Source: Acidobacteriota bacterium
GTDB lineage: Bacteria; Acidobacteriota; UBA6911; JACQSX01
DNA: 16,077 nucleotides
Reading direction: 5' to 3'
NCBI GenBank assembly: GCA_036507075.1
Contig: DASXQR010000104.1
Span: 1-16,077 of the forward strand
Made by a program: the position numbers and the translations under genes. Positions 1,273 to 15,899 of the stretch are shown here, one piece after another (positions within the stretch are counted from its first letter, which is position 1; each line of letters starts with the position of its first letter). The notes beneath the pieces are model-generated. The model worked only from the letters and a program-made list of their open reading frames with translations. It searched no databases and was not told the DNA's origin.

Positions 1273-1971
1273 CTAAGGGCGAAAGACGGCCTTGTTCGCC
1301 AGCCTGGCCTTCTCTTGCGCCACGCGGTTTTCCTCTTCCTGCTTCTTGTGACGTTCCAGTTCTCGTCGGGGAGCCTCTTGCACATCCAGCTGAACTGCTT
1401 CAACGATGGCGGTCCGGGCCAGGGCGTCCAGCGATTTGGAAACCACCACCATGCCAAAAGTAGGCTCGTAGGAGGATCGGAACAGGTTGAATGCGTACTG
1501 GGCGTCTTCCCAATAGGCTATGACATGCTGGCTGTCGCTATAAATCTGCGACGAAAAGAGGCTGATGCTCTTTGCAGTAGCAGGCCTTGTTGCCGTTCCG
1601 TACTTTAGAGAGACGGCTTCGATCATATCCGCGTCTGTCAGCCCTTCCGTCTTATAGCGATCGTAATTGACCACTATTCGAAAGAGATGGCCGTTGTAAA
1701 AACTGAAGAGGAGGCTTCTGGCCGAATCCGATTTGAGGGCAGGGCTGGTGGCGTATAAATAAGAAGACTGCCACTCCAGTTCTTGAATCAGCGCGGGACG
1801 CTCGTGGATAGTCGTTGCTTCAGACGGTTTCATGCCTGTCTGTTTCGCTATCGATGGAAGGTCCGCTCCGAACTGAAATTGCCGGTACCCGGACAAATCT
1901 TGCCCATAAATCAATGGCGTCAAAAACACCATCGAAAGAATTGAGATTGTCAGAGTGCGAGAGCTGATCAT
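1273..1971 (-). CDS. Hypothetical secreted protein
   Basis: 232-aa ORF with GGAGG RBS, a hydrophobic signal-peptide-like N terminus ending IYG-Q, and a charged helical C terminus. Confidence 0.75.
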   Translation of the reverse strand: MISSRTLTISILSMVFLTPLIYGQDLSGYRQFQFGADLPSIAKQTGMKPSEATTIHERPALIQELEWQSSYLYATSPALKSDSARSLLFSFYNGHLFRIVVNYDRYKTEGLTDADMIEAVSLKYGTATRPATAKSISLFSSQIYSDSQHVIAYWEDAQYAFNLFRSSYEPTFGMVVVSKSLDALARTAIVEAVQLDVQEAPRRELERHKKQEEENRVAQEKARLANKAVFRP

Positions 1972-1997: not shown

Positions 1998-2327
1998 TTA
2001 CGATTGCAACGCGGCGTTTGCCTCGGCCTTCGTTGGCTTTGAGCGGCGCTTACGAGGATAATGTTGTTCTAGGTATTCTGCGATATCCTCGTTCCCGATA
2101 CGCAAGCAGGCCGGGGCGCGCAATGTCTGCGTTTCTCCATCGAGCTCCCGCTTGAGTCGTCCCCAACAGAGGCCCGGACCGTCCTGGAATTTTAAGGAGG
2201 ATGACCGAAATGCTTCGAATTGAACTTCGAGCATGAATTCGCGCGTCTCCTCGGCGGCCTGGACCACATGAAAATTATAGATACGCGAATCGGCCGCAAC
2301 ATTAAAGCCAACATACTGGATCTGCAT
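1998..2327 (-). CDS. Small hypothetical protein
   Basis: ORF MQIQYVGF... with AAGGA RBS before the ATG at 2327. Co-directional with, and 26 bp from, the next gene. Confidence 0.7.
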   Translation of the reverse strand: MQIQYVGFNVAADSRIYNFHVVQAAEETREFMLEVQFEAFRSSSLKFQDGPGLCWGRLKRELDGETQTLRAPACLRIGNEDIAEYLEQHYPRKRRSKPTKAEANAALQS

Positions 2328-2337
2328 AGTCGATTCC

Positions 2338-2355
2338 TTAATTGATCCCAATTAA
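2338..2355. promoter_or_regulatory. Putative operator TTAAT-N8-ATTAA
   Basis: TTAAT tgatccca ATTAA directly upstream of the RBS of 2327..1998. Confidence 0.6.
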
Positions 2356-2605: not shown

Positions 2606-2926
2606 TCAGACTGCTGCAGGAACTGCAACCTTGTGGAAGGTCGAGTTGGAAACCTCATAGGTGTGAACCTGGGGAGTCCCCTCAACCACTTTCGCGAAGG
2701 CTTTCAGAACTTCCGCATAGGTTGTGCGGCCGTAAGTATCCGCGTTGTCCTTGTTGTCCCACAAACTAATTCCAACCGCTTCCGTGCCGTTCGGGGCGAC
2801 AAAGGCGATCTCGTCCTGGAAGCCTTTCTGTTTTCGGAGCAGCGGGATGATTTCGTTCTCAAGTGTCCGGGTAAAGTCGGTAATGCTATTGGGTTTCAAA
2901 CGCATCGAGACATTTCGTGCAAACAT
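2606..2926 (-). CDS. Small dimeric alpha-beta barrel (ABM-like) protein
   Basis: 106 aa with GGAGG RBS. The pattern IIPLLRKQKGF...GISLWD...YEV is typical of antibiotic biosynthesis monooxygenase-like folds. Confidence 0.78.
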   Translation of the reverse strand: MFARNVSMRLKPNSITDFTRTLENEIIPLLRKQKGFQDEIAFVAPNGTEAVGISLWDNKDNADTYGRTTYAEVLKAFAKVVEGTPQVHTYEVSNSTFHKVAVPAAV

Positions 2927-2969
2927 ATGGCAACCTCCATGGGTTGTCTTAAGCCTGGCGTGATTTCAG

Positions 2970-3114
2970 ATAACCTGACTTAGTTCAGGTAATCCGAATA
3001 AACACCTTAATTGAGGAAATAACTTTACTAGGTTAAGTTACTTTACTTAAAATGTCAATGGTACATTCTGAAAACGTCTTTGATTTAGGACTGCAATTAA
3101 TCAATATAGGTTAA
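2970..3114. promoter_or_regulatory. Divergent control region with three TTAAC-N8-GTTAA-like boxes and a leftward sigma70 promoter
   Basis: Boxes at 2970-2987, 3019-3036 and 3097-3114. On the minus strand, TTGACA (3058-3053)-N17-TAACCT (3035-3030). Confidence 0.75.
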
Positions 3115-3133: not shown

Positions 3134-3991
3134 ATGGATATCGCCCTTGTGATCAGGCATCGGCTGGAAGAATTGGGTCTTGAGCAGAAGAATCTGGCAA
3201 GCGCCGCACAGGTGACCGAGTCGTACATCTCACAGTTGCTGACACGGAAGAAGTCGCCTCCGGCACCTAATCGGACTGACATTTATGACAAGATGAGCGA
3301 ATTCTTGAGGCTGCCGAACGGTGAGCTTTCAAAGTTGGCCACACTCCAGCGCCAGGAAGAATTAAAGAGGAAGCTGGCGGACCCTCCCGCGCCCTTGTTC
3401 AAAGAGGTGCGAGATTTGGTGCTCAGTAAATGCAAACCCGACAAAAAACAACTGGTGCGGGGGATTTTTGAAAAGCAGCCCTTCGGTGAGCTGGAGCGCC
3501 TGGTCACACAGAAGCTTTTGGACGTAGTCAAGAGGGTAGCGAAAGAAGAATTGGACAACGAAAACTGGGTTCACCTGGTGGCTCGACTCGGCGGGCGAAG
3601 CTACGAACAAATGCGCGTTATCATCCTCGAGTTCCTCGACACGGATGTTTTTCATGTGTCGGTTGAAAACTGCGTATCTTTCCTGGACCCTCTGATTGAA
3701 TCCTGGGACATCGATCTTGCGACTTTTAGCATGGAAGTTGTCCTGAACCGAAGAGTAGCGCCTGGAGAGCCAAAGAAATTTGAGTTTGTCGAAAAGGAAA
3801 TCGAACCGGCTTTCCAAGAAGAACCAGGGCTCAAAGAATTCCTCCGGGATGTATCTCTCAGTGGTGACGTCACGCAGGAAGAAATTGAATTTCTCAAAAA
3901 TCTGAGATTCAAGAGAAAACGACCTACGGCTCTTTATTATTACCGCGAGCTGCAAAACTTCAGAGACCCCCTCCACTTTCGCAATTCATAA
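3134..3991 (+). CDS. XRE/Cro-C1 HTH transcriptional regulator with DdrO-like C-terminal domain
   Basis: N-terminal HTH (IRHRLEELGLEQKNLASAAQVTESYISQLL). C-terminal PGLKEFLRD..VTQEEIEFLKNLRFKRKRP resembles the DdrO dimerisation domain. Confidence 0.85.
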   Translation: MDIALVIRHRLEELGLEQKNLASAAQVTESYISQLLTRKKSPPAPNRTDIYDKMSEFLRLPNGELSKLATLQRQEELKRKLADPPAPLFKEVRDLVLSKCKPDKKQLVRGIFEKQPFGELERLVTQKLLDVVKRVAKEELDNENWVHLVARLGGRSYEQMRVIILEFLDTDVFHVSVENCVSFLDPLIESWDIDLATFSMEVVLNRRVAPGEPKKFEFVEKEIEPAFQEEPGLKEFLRDVSLSGDVTQEEIEFLKNLRFKRKRPTALYYYRELQNFRDPLHFRNS

Positions 3992-4047: not shown

Positions 4048-4119
4048 TTAACCGACTTTAATTAACAGCAATCTCCGATCTATGTTTACAGCGATACTTA
4101 ATTAACGTATTATAGTTAA
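4048..4119 (+). promoter_or_regulatory. groESL sigma70-type promoter with two palindromic boxes
   Basis: TTTACA (4085-4090)-N17-TATTAT (4108-4113). Boxes TTAAC-N8-ATTAA at 4048-4065 and TTAAC-N8-GTTAA at 4102-4119. Confidence 0.75.
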
Positions 4120-4212: not shown

Positions 4213-4536
4213 ATGAGCAGTATTAAACCCTTACATGACCGAGTTTTGGTTAAGCGTATTGATTCCGACAAAGAAGAGATCAAAGGAGGAATCGTTATCC
4301 CCGATACCGCCAAGGAAAAACCACAGGAAGGGGAGGTCATTGCCGTAGGAAATGGCAAGATCCTGGACAACGGAACGAAATTGAACCTGGAAGTAAAAGT
4401 CGGCGACCGCATTCTGTTTGGCAAGTATGCGGGCACCGAAGTCAAGATTGATGACAGGGAATTCCTGATCATGCGCGAAGAGGAGATCCTGGGAATTATC
4501 AGCGCCGGCACAAAAAGCGAGAGCGCTGCCGCCTAG
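4213..4536 (+). CDS. groES: Co-chaperonin GroES
   Basis: [33 protein letters not shown] and KYAGTEVK motifs. AAGGAG RBS. Confidence 0.99.
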
Positions 4537-4603: not shown

Positions 4604-6259
<1,656 letters not shown>

Positions 6260-6288: not shown

Positions 6289-6376
6289 TCACCGCCGAGG
6301 CGCCGAGATCGCCGAGTCTCGCAGAGTCTGCACCAAACCTCTGCGAATGTCAGCGTGCTCTGCGCCTCGGCGGTGA
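6289..6376. repeat. Palindromic element with 8/9-nt internal repeats
   Basis: TCACCGCCGAGGCGCCGAG...CTCTGCGCCTCGGCGGTGA inverted arms just after groEL. Confidence 0.8.
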
Positions 6377-9149: not shown

Positions 9150-9284
9150 TAGCCAAAAAAAAAACGCGCTTTTCTCAGGCAAGTTATATAGCTTTTCCCG
9201 AGCCCAACCTCGCCATTGACGGCGGCAGCGAATGTGCAATCAAACCACCAAGATGTCCTTAATTGAACAGACGCCCGTCTTTAC

Positions 9285-9347
9285 TTTACCTATAATGGTT
9301 AAGTTACTAGGGGAGCTCCGAAGGTCTAATAAACTAGATTTTGTTAA
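9285..9347 (+). promoter_or_regulatory. PBP promoter region with two palindromic boxes
   Basis: TTTAC ctataatg GTTAA (9285-9302) encloses a perfect TATAAT. TAAAC tagatttt GTTAA at 9330-9347. Confidence 0.65.
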
Positions 9348-9391
9348 TCTGGGATTCGGCCCCTTGGCCACGACAATCCAAGGAGATTGCC

Positions 9392-11659
9392 ATGTTTGGA
9401 CCCAGAGTTTGCGAGCGTCCGAAGCCCGGGAAGGAACAAGCAAAAGAATGGATGGCGACACTCCAAGGGCGAATCGCCTATTACCACCTCAAAACAAAAC
9501 AATGGTCGGTGCAACGGCTCTGTCGGTTGCGGGAGTTGCTGAAGCAGCACCCCTCTCTTCGCTACTCTTTATTTGCATGCGTGGGATTGCTGGCGTTTTG
9601 TCTGGCTGCCGGAACCTTTGTCCTCACCCAATCTGCGGCGGCAGCAGGAAAGCGGGACATTCAGTCGGTTTCCCGCATGGAAGAGAGCACGAACATTTTC
9701 GATCGGAACGGAAAACTCATTTATCAGTTTCACCAGAAACAGCGGACCGTGGTGCCCTTATCCCAAATCTCCAAAGAAATGCGGGACGCCATCCTTGCGG
9801 TGGAAGATCACAATTTCTATCGGCACTCGGGTTATGAAGGCAGTGCTATCGTTCGCGCCGCCTTTGCCAACCTGGTTTCTGGAAGGGTCACCCAGGGAGG
9901 CAGCACCCTTACGCAGCAACTCGCAAAGAATGTATTTTTGAATTCCGAGCGGTCTTACAGAAGAAAAATCCAGGAATTTTGGCTGGCGCGCAGAATTGAG
10001 CGCAACTACTCCAAAGACCAGATCCTTGAGATGTATGCCAATCGCATTTATTTCGGCTCCGGATACTACGGCGTGGAGGCGGCAGCGCAGGGCTATTTTG
10101 GAAAATCCGCGGCACAGTTGAGTCTGGAAGAAGCCGCCACGCTTGCCGGAATTGCCAAGGCTCCCGGCCTATATTCTCCTCACATCAGTCCTTCTTCGGC
10201 CGGGAAACGTCGCGATTTGGTGCTGAGCGCGATGGCCAGGTGCGGTTTTATCAGCGCCCGGCGCGCCGCGGCGGCAAAACAGCAGCCGCTTGTGGTCAAG
10301 GCTCGGACCGATGACTCCGAAGGCGTCGATTACGCCCTCGACTACGTGAAGGACCAACTGCAAGCGATGTTCGGATACAAAAAGATTTTCAACGGCGGCT
10401 TGCGTGTTTATACCAGTATTGATTCCGCTATGCAGAAAAGCGCTGAAACGGCCGTAGAGCATCATCTGGCTGGAATCGAGCATCAGCGGAGCTTCGCCGC
10501 CGATACTCGCGCGCAGTTTCTGGGGCGCCACAAAAACATCACCGGCGGTGAAGAAAGACCTGACTACCTGCAAGGCGCGCTGGTTTCCATGGATGTTCAC
10601 ACAGGCGAAATCTATGCGCTGGTGGGCGGACGCAATTTCAATGAGAGCAAGTTTAATCGCGCCGCTTACGCCAAGCGCCAGCCCGGTTCGGCCTTCAAGC
10701 CCATCGTTTATGCTGCGGCGCTGCATACGGGAATGACGCCCGCGACAATCATCGATGGCAGCCGTGAAGAGTATTGGACGGGAGATGCGGTGTATCGGCC
10801 CGCCAATGGTCATAGCAGACAGTATGGGTCTGTAACTCTTCGCGTTGCGCTAAGAAACTCGATTAACACTGTCGCAGTCCAAGTGGGGAAACTGCTTGGA
10901 CCGCAAACGATCATCCGCACCGCCCGTGATTTTGGGATGGAAGGGAACCTCCCTCCGGTGCTGTCGTTGCCCCTGGGCACCGGAGAAGTGACCCTGATGG
11001 AAATGGTCAGGGCCTATTCGGCTTTTCCGAACCAGGGGCGAGTGACTCAACCACGCATCATCCGCCGCGTAGAGACCAGAGACGGCCAGGTGCTGTACGA
11101 AGGGCACCCGGTGACACGATACGCCATCGATCCCCAGACTGCGTTCCTGATGACAACGATGCTTACCGACGCCGTGGATTACGGAACCGGAGCCGGTGTG
11201 CGCGGGGCTGGTTTTCGTCTGCCGGCGGGCGGGAAGACAGGAACGACGAATGATTTCCGCGACGCTTGGTTTATCGGCTTTACACCCGACGTGGTGACTG
11301 GCGTCTGGGTGGGTTTTGATGAGCCGCGAAAAATCATCCGCAACGGCTACGGAGCGACCCTTGCAGTTCCCATCTGGGCAGATTTCATGAAACACTGCTT
11401 CAACCGGCCTTCCGTCACGGGATTTTTGATGCCTGCTGGAATCGAGCGAGCCAGTATCTGTGCAGAGAGTGGGCTGCTGGCCACCCCGGCCTGCGACAAC
11501 GTGCATATGGAGTATTTCCCCGGCGGCAGCGTTCCTCAGTCTTCCTGCGATAAACACGGCATAACGGAGCCTTCAATCGATCCGGACACAGGCAACTCTT
11601 CGACCGACCCTAAGGCTGTGTCGATATCGATTTCACGCCTTCCCAAGTCTAGTCAATGA
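9392..11659 (+). CDS. Class A bifunctional penicillin-binding protein (PBP1A family)
   Basis: TM anchor, glycosyltransferase motifs EDHNFYRHSG, GGSTLTQQL and RKIQE, and transpeptidase motifs SAFK, SIN and KTG. AAGGAG RBS supports the ATG at 9392. Confidence 0.96.
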   Translation: MFGPRVCERPKPGKEQAKEWMATLQGRIAYYHLKTKQWSVQRLCRLRELLKQHPSLRYSLFACVGLLAFCLAAGTFVLTQSAAAAGKRDIQSVSRMEESTNIFDRNGKLIYQFHQKQRTVVPLSQISKEMRDAILAVEDHNFYRHSGYEGSAIVRAAFANLVSGRVTQGGSTLTQQLAKNVFLNSERSYRRKIQEFWLARRIERNYSKDQILEMYANRIYFGSGYYGVEAAAQGYFGKSAAQLSLEEAATLAGIAKAPGLYSPHISPSSAGKRRDLVLSAMARCGFISARRAAAAKQQPLVVKARTDDSEGVDYALDYVKDQLQAMFGYKKIFNGGLRVYTSIDSAMQKSAETAVEHHLAGIEHQRSFAADTRAQFLGRHKNITGGEERPDYLQGALVSMDVHTGEIYALVGGRNFNESKFNRAAYAKRQPGSAFKPIVYAAALHTGMTPATIIDGSREEYWTGDAVYRPANGHSRQYGSVTLRVALRNSINTVAVQVGKLLGPQTIIRTARDFGMEGNLPPVLSLPLGTGEVTLMEMVRAYSAFPNQGRVTQPRIIRRVETRDGQVLYEGHPVTRYAIDPQTAFLMTTMLTDAVDYGTGAGVRGAGFRLPAGGKTGTTNDFRDAWFIGFTPDVVTGVWVGFDEPRKIIRNGYGATLAVPIWADFMKHCFNRPSVTGFLMPAGIERASICAESGLLATPACDNVHMEYFPGGSVPQSSCDKHGITEPSIDPDTGNSSTDPKAVSISISRLPKSSQ

Positions 11660-11668
11660 AATGGAGAT

Positions 11669-12349
11669 TTAGTCACTCAGAACTACGTCGGTCAGGAGCG
11701 CTGCGCGCACGACGGTTTTGCCGTTATAGTCGATCAGGCCGAGCTTTCTAAACTTGTTCATGAAATAAGTGACACGCGGGCGGGTAGTGCCGATCATTTC
11801 CGCAAGAATCTCATGACTTACCAGGGGTATTGTGACATCAGGCGTGGCGTTCTCGTTACCCAACCGAGAGAGCTTCAAAAGCGCCCGCGCCAGCCGTTTT
11901 TCACTGTGATTGAAGAGCTGGTCACAGAGATCTTCTTCCAGGGCGATGTTGCGAGCCAGCAGCAGACTGACGAAAGTCTCGGCAAACTCGGGCCGGCTGT
12001 GTATGGCGCGCACCATGGCTGATTTGTCGAGTCGGAATATTTTAGAAGGTTCCAGCGTCTCGGCCGTGCCCATCTGTACAGTCTGGCCGACCAGGCATCC
12101 CTCACCGAAAAACTCTCGCGGCCCCAGCATAAAAAGTGTCGCTTCTTTCCCGGCCGTAGAAACCACGGAAATCTTGACCTTGCCGCTCTCGATAAAAAAC
12201 AGAGCCTCGGCTTGGTCTCCTTGTGAAAAAATTCTTTTGTGGGCGCCAAGATCGAGAGTCGTCTTTCCCTCCCTTACTTTTTTCAGGAGTTTCTCGATAT
12301 AGTGGTGCTGCTTCTTAACTTTTGGCGGTCGGAGTTCTTTAGTCGGCAC
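11669..12349 (-). CDS. Crp/Fnr family transcriptional regulator
   Basis: cNMP-binding fold (IFSQGD, SGKVKI, FFGEGCL) plus HTH (SHEILAEMIGTTRPRVTYFMNKFRKLGLI). GGAG RBS favours the GTG at 12349. Confidence 0.93.
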   Translation of the reverse strand: MPTKELRPPKVKKQHHYIEKLLKKVREGKTTLDLGAHKRIFSQGDQAEALFFIESGKVKISVVSTAGKEATLFMLGPREFFGEGCLVGQTVQMGTAETLEPSKIFRLDKSAMVRAIHSRPEFAETFVSLLLARNIALEEDLCDQLFNHSEKRLARALLKLSRLGNENATPDVTIPLVSHEILAEMIGTTRPRVTYFMNKFRKLGLIDYNGKTVVRAALLTDVVLSD

Positions 12350-12477
12350 CTTAGCGCTCCATGTCCAGCTTGGTTGGTTTCTGGTAGGGCTTAGCAATTA
12401 TCGCCCCGAAACAAGCTCGCGTCAAATATGAACACTGCAGCAAAAAAGCGCAGTGCCGAGCGAAAATTGCAGCCGGA

Positions 12478-12625
12478 ACCGCGAAGGCGCGAAAGCGCGA
12501 AATCAGTGAGATTTACTTGGCTAACCCAAATGTGACTAAGTAATGAAATGGCTGTGGTTCTGACCATCCAGGAAGACTAGAGCAGTTTTTGCTTTCGTGC
12601 TTTCGCGCCTTCTTACGCTCGCGGT
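12478..12625. repeat. Palindromic element of the 8/9-nt family
   Basis: ACCGCGAAGGCGCGAAAGCGCGAAA ... TTTCGTGCTTTCGCGCCTTC[ttacgctc]GCGGT. Confidence 0.7.
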
Positions 12626-12668
12626 ACCGATTTTTTCACCTGCTTAGTGTGCGACCAAAATACGAAGG

Positions 12669-12711
12669 TGTCCATAAGTGAACAGACACCCCTCTTTGAA
12701 GCTTCTAGTAT
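12669..12711 (+). promoter_or_regulatory. Putative class II Crp-family promoter for the GlsB/YeaQ gene
   Basis: TGTCCATAAGTGAACA-GAC (12669-12684) and TAGTAT -10 (12706-12711), giving a site centre of about -41.5. Confidence 0.62.
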
Positions 12712-12858: not shown

Positions 12859-13110
12859 ATGTCAATTCTCGCTTGGATCGTCCTGGGCTTGCTGGCTGGA
12901 TTTATCGGCAGCAAGATTGTCAATAAGAGGGGTGAGGGCTTTTTGCTCGACATTGTACTCGGAATCGTGGGTGCAGTTGTCGGCGGTTTCTTATTCAACG
13001 CTCTCGGAGCCGGTGGGGTAAGTGGCTTTAATCTTTACAGCCTGTTTGTTGCTGTGGTGGGCTCGGTTTTACTTTTGGTAGCTTACCACGCCGTCATTCG
13101 ACGGGCGTAA
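12859..13110 (+). CDS. GlsB/YeaQ/YmgE family stress-response membrane protein (transglycosylase-associated)
   Basis: MSILAWIVLGLLAGFIG...DIVLGIVGAVVGG...SLFVAVVGSVLLL. AAGGAG RBS. Confidence 0.95.
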   Translation: MSILAWIVLGLLAGFIGSKIVNKRGEGFLLDIVLGIVGAVVGGFLFNALGAGGVSGFNLYSLFVAVVGSVLLLVAYHAVIRRA

Positions 13111-13112
13111 CT

Positions 13113-13278
13113 AAGAATTTTTGCACCACGAAGGCACAAAGGGCACAAAGTCAGACGAGGGGCAGGTAGAGCCGGGTCAGGTTTCAAAGTCAAAATGTGG
13201 CAGCGTGTTAGTTGACCGGACTCTGCCTCTCCTCGTCTCGCTTTGTGCCCTTTGTGTCTTTGTGGTGGAAACCTCCTG
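13113..13278. repeat. ~165-bp palindromic element, copy 2
   Basis: Same orientation, flank (AAGAATTTTTGCACCAC) and loop (TCAAAGTCAAAATGYGGCARCGTGTTA) as 2360-2530. Lies between convergent genes. Confidence 0.9.
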
Positions 13279-13300: not shown

Positions 13301-15436
13301 CTAGGCGCTCAAAATACGGAAATCGTGCGTGTGGCCGTCGGGTTCGATGATACGGAACCAGACCTGATGCTTGGGTTTATCTCGCAGGTTCTCCCACGCT
13401 TTTCGGAAACGCTTCGCCTGCCCTGCTGGCGCCAGCACCGGTGATGGCCCGTCGATCACTTCCGCCGAATCGAGCTGCGCAGCAGTGCAGGCGATAGCGT
13501 CGAGAATATTGGAAGAGGGCACGACGAGCAGGTGCACGGGCTTGCCTTCCTTTTCCGCAAGCGCGACCACATGAGTGAACAACAATTGCTTGTGGCTGGT
13601 GAAAAGCCGGTGCTCAGCAATGCCCTGGTACCCGGTGTGGGGTCCTTTTAGAATCTTCACGGTCATCACCACCAGGTCTTTTTTTTCCGCGTCGGCCAGC
13701 TCCAGAGCTTTGCGCATGTGATCGAGTGAGTGGTAATCACGAACAAAACAGAGCGTGTTGCCGGGGCGGATGCCGAGGCTCTCGTTTGACACGCGCTCTT
13801 GCGCGTGGGTCTGGAATTGATCCATCTCGACATGGCCGGCCGCTCCCTCTTTTCGTTCGTTGATGCGCTCCGAGATTACAAAGAGGATAAAAAAGACCAG
13901 CGTGAAGGCCACTCCACTGATCGTTGCCACCTCTTTGGTAATCAGGTTTATTCCGGCTATCGAGAACAGCAGCGTTACGATCACGCCAAGCCCGATCGGA
14001 ATTTCATTGCCGGCCAGATTGATATTGAAGGGGACCTTCCACTCGCGCGGCGATTTGTCTTTGAAGCGCAGTACGATCACCGCCAATCCCTGGAAAGCAA
14101 ATGACCAGACGACGCCGAATGCGTAAGCCTCGCCCAGAACGTAGACGTTGCCGCGCGAGGCAATGATCGTCGCAAGTTGGAAGACCACTATCAGGTTGAT
14201 CATCCGATAGGTGGTGCCGTATTTCTTATGCGGCTCGCGGAACCAATCCGTCAGCACGCCGTCTTCAGAAACTCGGTTGAGGACACCGTTGGATCCGATG
14301 ATTGCTGTGTTCACTGCGCCCGACAGCATAAGAAACCCGACCATCACGATAAAAGCCTGGAAGAGGAGTTTTAACGGCATTGGGCCGATCAGGTGTAAGG
14401 CAATGCCGCTGATCAGGTTGTCGAAATACTGTGGCCGGGCGTTGTCGGGGATTATTGCATAGGCGAAGAACGAGACGAGCGAGGTGAACAGCAGCGAGTA
14501 AACGAAGATGACAAATCCAGCGCGCACCAGGTTTTGGTGCTTAGGGTATTCCAGCTCGCGGTTGACCTGCGCGAGAGATTCCTCGCCGGACATCGCCAGA
14601 AACGAGTGCCCGAAGGCAATCATGATGCCGATCAGCCCCAACAGAGCGCCTGCGTTGGGCGCCAGGCCGTGCAGCGGTTCCGGTGTTGCTTGCTCGGGCG
14701 CGGGCGTCGTGGCTGGAGGGGCGACAATGGTTAGTGGCCGCAGAGCGCCTGGCATGATCTTGGGCAACCACCCGACGGCATCGCGATTGAACGCGAGGTG
14801 GCCCGGCAGGGGCGCGGGCGGCAAGCGCTGCATTGCGGGCTGCGTCAGGATTGTCAACCCGCACCACCCAATCAGCATCACCACCATCACCGTGGTCACA
14901 TACATGATCTTCAGCGCATCGTCCGATGATTCGTGGATGCCTTTCCTGTTCCGCCACCAGAAGTAAAGGGTCACCAACACAGCCAGGGCCGCGGCCAACA
15001 AGTTTATCTTTGCTTTCGAGGGGGCCCACGCATATCCGAAATGGGTGGCCGTCTGTGCAGCCAGGCCGACGACGTACTGGCCTGCCGAAACAGCGGAGAT
15101 CGGCCCCGTCAGAATGTAGTCGAACATCAGGGCGGAAACCGAAAGTTTGGCGAGGGTACCGCCCATCGCCTCTTTGACGACGCGATAGACGCCGCCGCGC
15201 GTGAACATCCCGCAGGATTCGATATAGACGGCCCGCACGGCATAAGAGAAGAGCATCACACCGAAGATGAACCAGGGGGCCGCGCGTCCGACTGCTTGCT
15301 CGGCAATGCCGCCGACGTAGTAAGCCGACGAGCCGAGATCGTTGAGGACGATGGCGGCAGCGCGCCAGAAGGAAATAAACGAGAGCATCACCGATGTGAC
15401 GACAACTACTTTCGTCGCCCGTTTTGCCGGCTTCAT
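13301..15436 (-). CDS. APC-superfamily transporter with cytoplasmic C-terminal domain (KimA-like)
   Basis: About 12 hydrophobic segments, motifs DLGSSAYY, GGVY, DYILTGPIS and SGEES, and a soluble domain of about 180 aa. Confidence 0.9.
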   Translation of the reverse strand: MKPAKRATKVVVVTSVMLSFISFWRAAAIVLNDLGSSAYYVGGIAEQAVGRAAPWFIFGVMLFSYAVRAVYIESCGMFTRGGVYRVVKEAMGGTLAKLSVSALMFDYILTGPISAVSAGQYVVGLAAQTATHFGYAWAPSKAKINLLAAALAVLVTLYFWWRNRKGIHESSDDALKIMYVTTVMVVMLIGWCGLTILTQPAMQRLPPAPLPGHLAFNRDAVGWLPKIMPGALRPLTIVAPPATTPAPEQATPEPLHGLAPNAGALLGLIGIMIAFGHSFLAMSGEESLAQVNRELEYPKHQNLVRAGFVIFVYSLLFTSLVSFFAYAIIPDNARPQYFDNLISGIALHLIGPMPLKLLFQAFIVMVGFLMLSGAVNTAIIGSNGVLNRVSEDGVLTDWFREPHKKYGTTYRMINLIVVFQLATIIASRGNVYVLGEAYAFGVVWSFAFQGLAVIVLRFKDKSPREWKVPFNINLAGNEIPIGLGVIVTLLFSIAGINLITKEVATISGVAFTLVFFILFVISERINERKEGAAGHVEMDQFQTHAQERVSNESLGIRPGNTLCFVRDYHSLDHMRKALELADAEKKDLVVMTVKILKGPHTGYQGIAEHRLFTSHKQLLFTHVVALAEKEGKPVHLLVVPSSNILDAIACTAAQLDSAEVIDGPSPVLAPAGQAKRFRKAWENLRDKPKHQVWFRIIEPDGHTHDFRILSA

Positions 15437-15458: not shown

Positions 15459-15899
15459 TTAGCTATTCATGATCTTACGGTATGAGGTGTACAAATCGGA
15501 GAGACGATCTGCGGCAGCAGGATCGCTTCGAGCGAGCAAAGTAATGATCTCATCACGTTTTGTAAACAACGGCTGCACTCCTTCTCTTTGTGCCTGCGTG
15601 AGGACCGAATCGACCCCTCGGTCAATTTCTTCCCGTAAGGTGGTAAAGAAGCGGCTGGCAGCTTGGCGGGCCGGCTCATAATCGCCTCGCCGCGCGTCAA
15701 TTACTGCGGACGCAAGGGCATTCTGCATCCGGATTAAGCTTAATTGGTGGTTTGCCTCAGAAAGGCTGCCGGAGCATTCACGAGCCTTGAGCCACATTGG
15801 TATGAAGCCGAGCAGGAAGACAACGAGCAGCACGGCAGTATAGATGACGAACCGCCGCATCAAATGAGTTGACTGCTTAACTTGCACCTCTTCGCCCAT
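15459..15899 (-). CDS. Single-pass membrane hypothetical protein
   Basis: AAGGAG RBS, one TM helix and a helical soluble domain. Ends 22 bp upstream of the transporter start. Confidence 0.78.
   Translation of the reverse strand: MGEEVQVKQSTHLMRRFVIYTAVLLVVFLLGFIPMWLKARECSGSLSEANHQLSLIRMQNALASAVIDARRGDYEPARQAASRFFTTLREEIDRGVDSVLTQAQREGVQPLFTKRDEIITLLARSDPAAADRLSDLYTSYRKIMNS

Follow-up and report, generated by a model that had tools for sequence, protein, structure and literature searches.

The window, by which we mean the whole analysed stretch of 16,077 nucleotides, carries a regulator gene at 3134..3991 on the forward strand. As the original prediction had proposed, this gene is a real open reading frame for an XRE regulator: an SD-like AAAGGGA precedes its ATG, and the encoded protein of 285 amino acids has an N-terminal helix-turn-helix (HTH) domain. 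A full-length AF2 model (mean pLDDT 85) showed three parts: the HTH domain plus a helix (residues 1-80), a unique alpha/beta insert (about residues 84-224) and a small helical tail, predicted to be a DdrO-type C-terminal domain (CTD). Divergent from the regulator, on the reverse strand, lie a gene for an ABM-like protein of 106 aa (2606..2926; Pfam ABM at E 0.003, under the cut-off) and two conserved hypothetical genes. The first of these encodes about 110 aa (1998..2351; 18 of 80 related loci), the second 232 aa (1273..1971; 22 of 80 loci) with an N terminus that by eye resembles a signal peptide and with no match in Pfam or NCBIfam. On the forward strand, the regulator is followed by second copies of groES (4213..4536) and groEL (4625..6259) and by a gene for PBP1A, a transglycosylase-transpeptidase (9392..11659, likely start ATG 9392).

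Several further elements were observed in the window. Positions 1-653 hold a FitA-like RHH antitoxin gene, cut by the contig end, paired with a PIN toxin gene, and a rhodanese-like gene lies at 643-1188. A CRP/FNR-type regulator gene (11669-12397; CRP-type genes occurred in 5/80 related loci), an APC permease gene (13301-15436) and a gene for a membrane-anchored hypothetical protein of 146 aa (15459-15899) occupy the other end. An intergenic palindromic element of about 160 nt is present in two copies with 86% identity (2360-2526 and 13113-13272), and two further long inverted repeats were seen at 6289-6376 and 12483-12612. These palindromic elements look REP/MITE-type; Rfam gave only spurious microRNA matches.

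The regulator belongs to a large, uncharacterised family that occurs in Acidobacteriota, betaproteobacteria, Nitrospira and others, mostly in Acidobacteriota. Each of the 8000 scored candidates passed; among the top 120 of them, nearly all were 78-92% identical, and 903 clusters (50% identity) matched the regulator at E ≤0.001. Its relatives in GTDB are encoded on 165 stretches; locus counts given here rest on 80 of these, many of them truncated. Distribution within the phylum of the window was patchy, with near-full-length genes in 11 of 301 genomes and in 14 when partial or paralogous matches were counted; the sample takes in the unpublished genome G073, on which no claim depends. No description of the family or its operator was found in the literature, with most subscription journals and supplements outside the coverage of the search.

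Residues 1-80 (3134..3373, forward strand), the XRE/Cro HTH domain with the helix after it, gave a weak match to Pfam HTH_3 (E 8e-4, under the curated cut-off). Residues 1-79 matched the folds of HigA, 434 and the N-terminal domains of CapH and DdrO, the HTH feature of the latter being present at Z 8.2 (6rnz, rmsd 2.5, 66 aligned). The tail (residues 225-282; 3806..3979, forward strand) is a predicted dimerisation domain. An AF2 model of residues 225-285 (61 aa, pLDDT 80) was searched against 48,161 chains, as the original prediction had proposed, and DdrO took ranks 1 and 2 at Z 8.0 (rmsd 2.9, 56 aligned) and Z 7.1 (rmsd 2.7, 56 aligned), a range that for a small helical domain the fold tool calls possibly a common arrangement. 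The best non-DdrO row reached Z 4.0, at least 3 units below DdrO. Foldseek likewise placed DdrO chains in its top six rows (TM 0.63-0.72, probability 0.87-1.0), with E values of 0.16-1.3, none of which reaches 0.001. Because of the gap to the next row and the agreement of a sequence test, a DdrO fold of the tail is credible despite the modest Z.

For the sequence test, D. deserti DdrOP3, taken from its plasmid record, served as DdrO reference. The claimed ungapped alignment to the DdrO C terminus was recovered with it: hhalign of a 63-sequence CTD profile gave 36 ungapped columns, residues 231-266 against 78-113, with 10/36 identities (probability 63.7, E 6.7e-5). The stretch EPGLKEFLRD...YYYRELQ had been read correctly but misplaced slightly, its true position being residues 230-274 and not ~229-280. 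On the family profile, the DdrO CTD scored 13.5 bits, a value reached by none of 5000 shuffles (maximum 7.5). BLASTP with the single regulator protein did not find the DdrO CTD match as a separate hit, phmmer and hmmsearch of the CTD alone against the PDB missed DdrO and returned only unrelated chance matches, and the full-length family profile found DdrO in the PDB only at E 0.53. The CTD sequence had no significant match in the PDB, Pfam, NCBIfam, PHROGs or the ESM Atlas. These results make it very likely that the regulator tail folds like the DdrO CTD. The original description of the domain as also CapH-like was not supported, as CapH matched the HTH only; in the text available of its preprint, the CapH CTD consists of two helices in a V, cut at F82|R83 within helix 1 (bioRxiv 10.1101/2022.04.27.489752). 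CapH was absent among the listed matches of the CTD model, which does not exclude it, and the helix arrangement of the model is that of DdrO.

In DdrO, the CTD, which has been described as a new fold, has three helices, and alpha8 is the dimer helix (PMC6868357). Among 80 GTDB relatives of the regulator, the last helix, LYYYRELQNxRDPLHF, was the most conserved CTD segment (mean 0.96), and it corresponds to DdrO alpha8. The DdrO pair D96-R107 maps to E249-K260; the R103-E105 pair is not kept. By analogy, the regulator probably dimerises through its DdrO-type tail as DdrO does. Close IrrE/DdrO homologues were placed in Deinococcota in the portion seen of one report (PMC12828697), and no short DdrO-like proteins without insert were found in the 301 phylum genomes.

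The claim of an extra central domain that cannot be assigned was borne out, at about 140 aa as against the ~150 aa first estimated. This insert (residues 84-224; 3383..3805, forward strand) was predicted to form six helices followed by three strands and is folded in the model (pLDDT mostly 79-92). Neither Pfam and NCBIfam nor the PDB sequences contained a match to it, the inserts of 40 family members gave no consistent Pfam family, and in fold searches with the full-length model HTH matches filled the listed rows. Conservation in the 80 GTDB relatives was 0.83 for the insert versus 0.85 for the HTH, and only two of 641 candidates matched it within longer proteins. The insert is a candidate new sensory domain; it could instead be structural. 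A degenerate repeat of the DdrO CTD was considered as its origin and rejected (hhalign probability 3.6, E 0.012, 15/5000 shuffles as good), and the insert did not match the CTD of its own family. Residues 123-153 weakly resemble the DdrO CTD, a hint at most. In addition, residues 143-168 (window 3560-3637) contain two predicted helices joined by G-R-S, with A149, G153 and M159 in what we take to be an HTH-like spacing.

The upstream regions of the relatives share an 18-bp palindrome, TTAAC-N8-GTTAA. In 76 anchored promoters, the spacer of 8 gave 114 matches versus at most 41 for any other spacer. A PWM was built from 194 sites, with the window and its closest relative left out. With leave-one-out matrices, at least one site was found upstream in 74/77 relatives and at least two in 64/77, versus downstream sites in 1/75. 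All ten promoters outside the training set, including those of relatives with 53-59% identity, had a site scoring at least 11.6. In the window, 6 operator matches were found versus 0.24 expected (0/200 shuffles). Seven window sites, at 2970, 3019, 3097, 4048, 4102, 9285 and 9330, were among the 18 best in the genome (6.1 Mb, score ≥13), a concentration on this 16-kb contig with a binomial probability of 2.7e-14.

Three of these sites lie between the divergent genes. The ABM-like gene has an operator-like site in its leader (2970..2987, PWM 14.4), an operator covers the -10 region predicted for the divergent promoter (3019..3036, PWM 15.7), and directly upstream of the regulator SD lies the best site of the genome (3097..3114, PWM 18.1), which makes autoregulation likely. 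Upstream of groES, an operator at 4048..4065 (PWM 17.1), present too in the close relative L003, is followed by a perfect TTAAC-N8-GTTAA (4102..4119) that encloses the -10 box TATTAT of a predicted groES promoter with its -35 TTTACA at 4085. A weak operator-like site is associated with the ~110-aa hypothetical gene (2338-2355, PWM 10.4). Outside the regulator promoter, 15 sites were counted in the 80 loci (control mean 4.3, maximum 11), and they mostly precede extra ABM copies, Hsp20 or groES. The genome-wide count at a score ≥13 was 18 versus a mean of 15.9 in column-permuted controls, that is, without enrichment; a global regulon was therefore rejected, and the regulon is read as a local module. 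In 5/5 inspected genomes without a detected regulator, the best operator score at ABM genes was ≤5.2, versus 17.5-20.4 in 4/4 regulator-bearing genomes, in one of which the ABM gene is on a contig apart from the regulator. From these patterns it appears highly probable that the regulator binds TTAAC-N8-GTTAA and represses.

A conserved leader RNA switch was also considered and was not supported, since the consensus had an energy of -0.4 kcal/mol with 6 pairs and Rfam gave no match at gathering level. The ABM leader (2927-3015, reverse strand) has a possible hairpin (z -2.85) that is missing from the PBP1A copy described below. A TTCAG...CTGAA arm pair like that of the hairpin persists in regulator-less genomes (L180, L181), and a CCTTGG/CCAAGG pairing in the leader could mask the SD, with a weak consensus fold.

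The groES and groEL genes of the window are the second chaperonin operon of this genome. The groEL gene is 90% identical to a copy on contig C52, where the only perfect CIRCE of the genome precedes the other groESL; a true hrcA is present on contig C73. Using what we take to be the CIRCE consensus, no CIRCE was found at ≤3 mismatches in the window or in loci L001-L082, and the regulator had no Pfam match to an HrcA domain. Upstream of the CIRCE-bearing groES, at about 7150-7290 of C52, CCCTCCAT/CTCTCCAT tandem repeats were observed. Linkage of the regulator to groESL, the subject of a proposed synteny check, recurs in 21 of the 80 loci, but the same-strand layout of the window is unusual: groESL lies downstream of the regulator on one strand in 2/80 loci and usually at the end of the divergent operon. 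It is absent from 59/80 loci and from 33/49 of those with at least 5 kb of upstream flank. GroEL copies were compared from 14 carrier genomes, plus two from the genome of the window (25/30 loci were long enough). All 12 regulator-linked groEL genes were without CIRCE, 10 other copies had CIRCE and 5 were unassigned. The linked genes grouped by host lineage with the CIRCE copies, the window copy with that of its own genome, and monophyly of the 12 was rejected (p-AU 3.5e-44) in a test on 22 rows that omitted the 5 unassigned copies. Because linked groEL genes group with the HrcA-controlled copy of each host and their monophyly is rejected, chaperonins were probably captured repeatedly by the regulator module; repeated gene conversion by the host copy could mimic this pattern. 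Capture or conversion in at least three lineages would in either case point to selection for chaperonin induction outside HrcA control.

A second copy of the ABM promoter, leader and start lies at 9282..9409 (forward strand), fused to the PBP1A gene, with operators at 9285-9302, which encloses a TATAAT, and at 9330-9347. A promoter HMM (nhmmer) had only two significant matches in the genome, the ABM leader and 9282-9409 (E 1.8e-17), and the first PBP1A codons resemble those of the ABM gene. Judged by its sequence, this fusion of the ABM cassette, including first codons, to PBP1A is a promoter capture. Operator sites before groESL and PBP1A support the proposal that the controlled genes are those of chaperones and the envelope and not those of DNA repair. 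The envelope link is supported for this genome only, as PBP1A genes were found in 3/80 related loci (32-36% identity). The upstream half of the cassette (9233-9282) recurs at 12648-12697 with 80% identity over 50 nt; this repeat precedes a GlsB/YeaQ-type gene at 12859, and there is no operator there.

Usually, the regulator is divergent from a series of genes in which ABM comes first, those for small hypothetical or membrane proteins follow and groES-groEL or Hsp20 come last. The ABM gene is the most conserved partner (62/80 loci). Further cargo of the 80 loci included groES (21), groEL (21), RRM (13), Hsp20 (12), GlsB-like (12; labelled by eye, the representative being without a Pfam match) and DUF6804 (12) and, less often, an RpoD copy (7), CspA (5) and a DEAD helicase (3). 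Since this cargo mixes heat-type and cold-type genes, it does not define the inducing signal. Among neighbour clusters present in at least three loci and put to Pfam, none was a DNA-repair or defence cluster, and no recurrent integrase was found among annotated neighbour clusters. Carriers with neither ABM nor chaperone neighbours included the Nitrospira loci L043 and L056 as well as L039, L118 and L119.

At roughly even chances, we consider the regulator a dimeric repressor that controls a local proteostasis module and owes its release to its unique insert, not to an IrrE-type cut. Held together by the DdrO-type tail, the dimer would bind two or three palindromes per promoter and thereby block RNA polymerase at its own gene, the divergent ABM-like operon, the CIRCE-less second groESL and, here, the PBP1A gene. 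Release would occur under protein-folding stress through the middle domain: the insert would tie repressor activity to folding capacity or temperature, and induced GroESL or Hsp20 would close a feedback loop. Repressor activity of HrcA depends on folding capacity or temperature, and by analogy such a sensor role of the insert, with GroESL/Hsp20 feedback, is conceivable, with chances that we put somewhat short of even.

The main competing explanation concerns the original prediction of a cleavable tail. As predicted, F259|K260 (3908..3913, forward strand) is in register with the DdrO scissile bond L106|R107 in the profile alignment, but the residues around it are not those of a PprI site. According to the part of PMC4374696 that was available, the DdrO residues required by PprI are E at P2, L at P1, G at P2' and R at P4'; at P1', R-to-A is tolerated but R-to-E is not, and DdrO proteins conserve the site strictly. 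The window protein has R258, F259, R261 and R263 at the four needed positions, one of which is as needed, and reads R-F|K-R-K-R where PprI recognises E-L|R-G-x-R. In the 80 GTDB relatives, P2 was R in 67 and E in 1, P1 was F, L or V (71, 6 and 3), P1' was K in 45, N in 22 and acidic in 5, and P2' was G in 58 and E in 10. The site is among the most variable positions of the CTD, in which the counterpart of the DdrO dimer helix is the most conserved, a pattern more in keeping with a dimer interface than with a substrate motif.

The scanned ORFs of the window included no IrrE/ImmA/CapP-like gene, in agreement with the original prediction. The cognate peptidase that it suggested seeking elsewhere in the genome did not emerge: at 95.7% completeness, which leaves a small gap, the genome had a single M78 match, a weak fragment (E 2.4e-5). 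This fragment, in L002 (G000:C146:65444-68635), looks degraded and adjoins an ORF identified by eye as a group II intron-type reverse transcriptase. Of the 79 genomes behind the loci, 50 were searched, and 29 of these carriers had an M78 match versus 161 of 301 phylum genomes, which is background frequency; 8/11 carriers within the phylum sample had some match, three of them weak. Comparison of 27 peptidase ORFs (25 from 30 loci plus two) yielded 23 groups, the largest of two members, and hence no shared orthologue, and 10/24 scanned peptidases were HTH-M78 fusions. In G106 an M78 gene lies 5 kb from the regulator, as part of a trio with a sigma-factor-like gene that in G090 is 35 kb from the regulator. 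In two related genomes (L113:14219-15816, L116:7236-8870), a sigma-factor-like gene and a 156-aa gene form a three-gene unit with a stand-alone peptidase gene, whose M78 assignment was confirmed. HExxH peptidases did not recur in the 80 loci, which contained 4 scattered motif matches. In Deinococcus, irrE and ddrO are unlinked, so that absence of a peptidase from the neighbourhood proves little. The combined genomic evidence nevertheless makes it likely that the regulator has no dedicated IrrE-type protease.

A switch with the same operator in which an unlinked, co-evolved peptidase disrupts the dimer by a cut at F259|K260, in the manner of IrrE and DdrO, is unlikely in our judgement. It would be in line with the conserved fold and loop register, the invariably hydrophobic P1, a mostly basic loop that ends in R263-P264 and the M78 proteins of 29 carriers, including the one near the G106 regulator. 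Furthermore, cleavage of ImmR follows F95 and falls in a loop that does not resemble that of DdrO (PMC6868357), so that peptidase specificities can co-evolve with their substrates. Against it stand the recognition residues, an acidic P1' that blocks PprI and is found in 5/80 relatives, the 21/50 carriers without an M78 match, the scatter of the peptidases over groups and fusions, the weak fragment in the genome of the window and the membership of the G106 peptidase in a separate trio. The cleavable tail is thus weakly supported, and an unlinked protease of another family may act on the regulator.

Rather less probable is that the ABM-like partner, or a small molecule bound or made by it, acts on the insert as anti-repressor or co-repressor. 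The ABM gene is adjacent and divergent in 52/71 loci with enough flank and is kept beside regulators that are only ~54% identical, and the five best-scoring ABM genomes of the phylum sample all have the regulator. However, 5 of the 11 phylum carriers are without ABM at E 1e-8 (G057, G268, G299, G313 and G335), close orthologues occur in G157, G201 and G260, in which no regulator was detected, and ABM behaves as a target gene. We regard as improbable a thiol or metal redox switch in which C100 and C180 of the insert sense oxidative or desiccation stress. These cysteines are present in 80/80 and 78/80 GTDB relatives, respectively, but four divergent members that keep the operator are without C180, one of them also without C100, and a nitroreductase-like gene in 4 loci was the sole recurring redox enzyme in the cargo. 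Self-repression with activation of the divergent operon (a cI-like dual switch), or use of the palindrome by another regulator, seems very improbable: the back-to-back promoters do share a palindromic TTGAC-GTCAA core with several sites, but the sites enclose -10 boxes or sit in leaders at target promoters, and the motif tracks the presence of the DdrO-type regulator.

A repressor released via its insert would differ from the known systems that it resembles. Like DdrO, the regulator combines an XRE HTH with a three-helix C-terminal fold, and it has a palindromic operator of similar size and a divergent neighbour with several intergenic sites (PMC6868357). DdrO, however, has 129 aa with a short flexible linker (~130 aa total), in contrast to 285 aa with a ~140-aa insert, and its RDRM is 17 bp as opposed to the 18-bp TTAAC-N8-GTTAA. 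Furthermore, DdrO targets recA/ssb/gyr/uvr genome-wide, while the putative targets of the regulator are chaperones and small stress proteins in a local module, with neither a kept PprI motif nor a co-occurring peptidase. CapH/CapP shares the XRE HTH (7t5u, Z 9.1 over residues 1-68) and, at the notional cleavage position, a Phe followed by a basic residue; an adjacent capP and defence-operon targets, both typical of CapH, do not recur in the 80 loci. With ImmR/ImmA and COG2856/XRE pairs, the regulator has in common its position divergent from putative targets and a patchy, apparently transferable spread, but it is without an adjacent M78 gene, recurrent integrase or detected phage, plasmid or viral relatives.

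Against the background of the known roles of HrcA/CIRCE, CtsR and HspR, the likeness to HrcA/CIRCE lies in a putative repressor that acts at the promoter of groESL through an inverted repeat. Sequence and operator are unrelated, and HrcA coexists in the genome with a CIRCE-bearing groESL, so that the DdrO-type regulator would control the other copy. Since linker, cleavage motif, peptidase, operator and regulon all differ from those of DdrO, the regulator is not placed in that family; it would be built like DdrO, would work like HrcA and would be a member of neither family. A very large family outside Deinococcota indicates that the DdrO fold can serve outside the context of IrrE and DNA repair. 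These results provide a regulator, an exact putative operator and target promoters for soil bacteria that are abundant and mostly uncultured, and they suggest a concrete way in which duplicated groESL operons may be regulated independently of HrcA. More tentatively, the family may represent a stress switch that has not been described before in soil bacteria and that parallels HrcA, the protease having been dropped and a sensor gained. An interphylum cassette of regulator, operator and ABM would then capture host groESL, Hsp20, RNA chaperones and PBP by promoter duplication, the stress being, for example, drying-rewetting or a temperature shift.

In a quick tree of the regulator with a midpoint root, 14 Pseudomonadota rows and two Acidobacteriota rows formed one supported branch among Acidobacteriota. 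This placement suggests horizontal transfer without proving it, given the midpoint root and the foreign contigs that bins may contain. An origin from phages, plasmids or viruses was rejected, as no relatives were found in such collections. tRNA genes were present in 10 of 60 regulator loci, of several kinds and without a common site. In L117, L064, L128 and L126, regulator copies are broken or duplicated and operators are duplicated, which suggests frequent rearrangement of the cassette. Finally, a subgroup of regulators (L008, L022, L026, L048, L058 and L067) extends ~60 aa past the CTD in a basic tail, and other regulators run 40-50 aa past the CTD.
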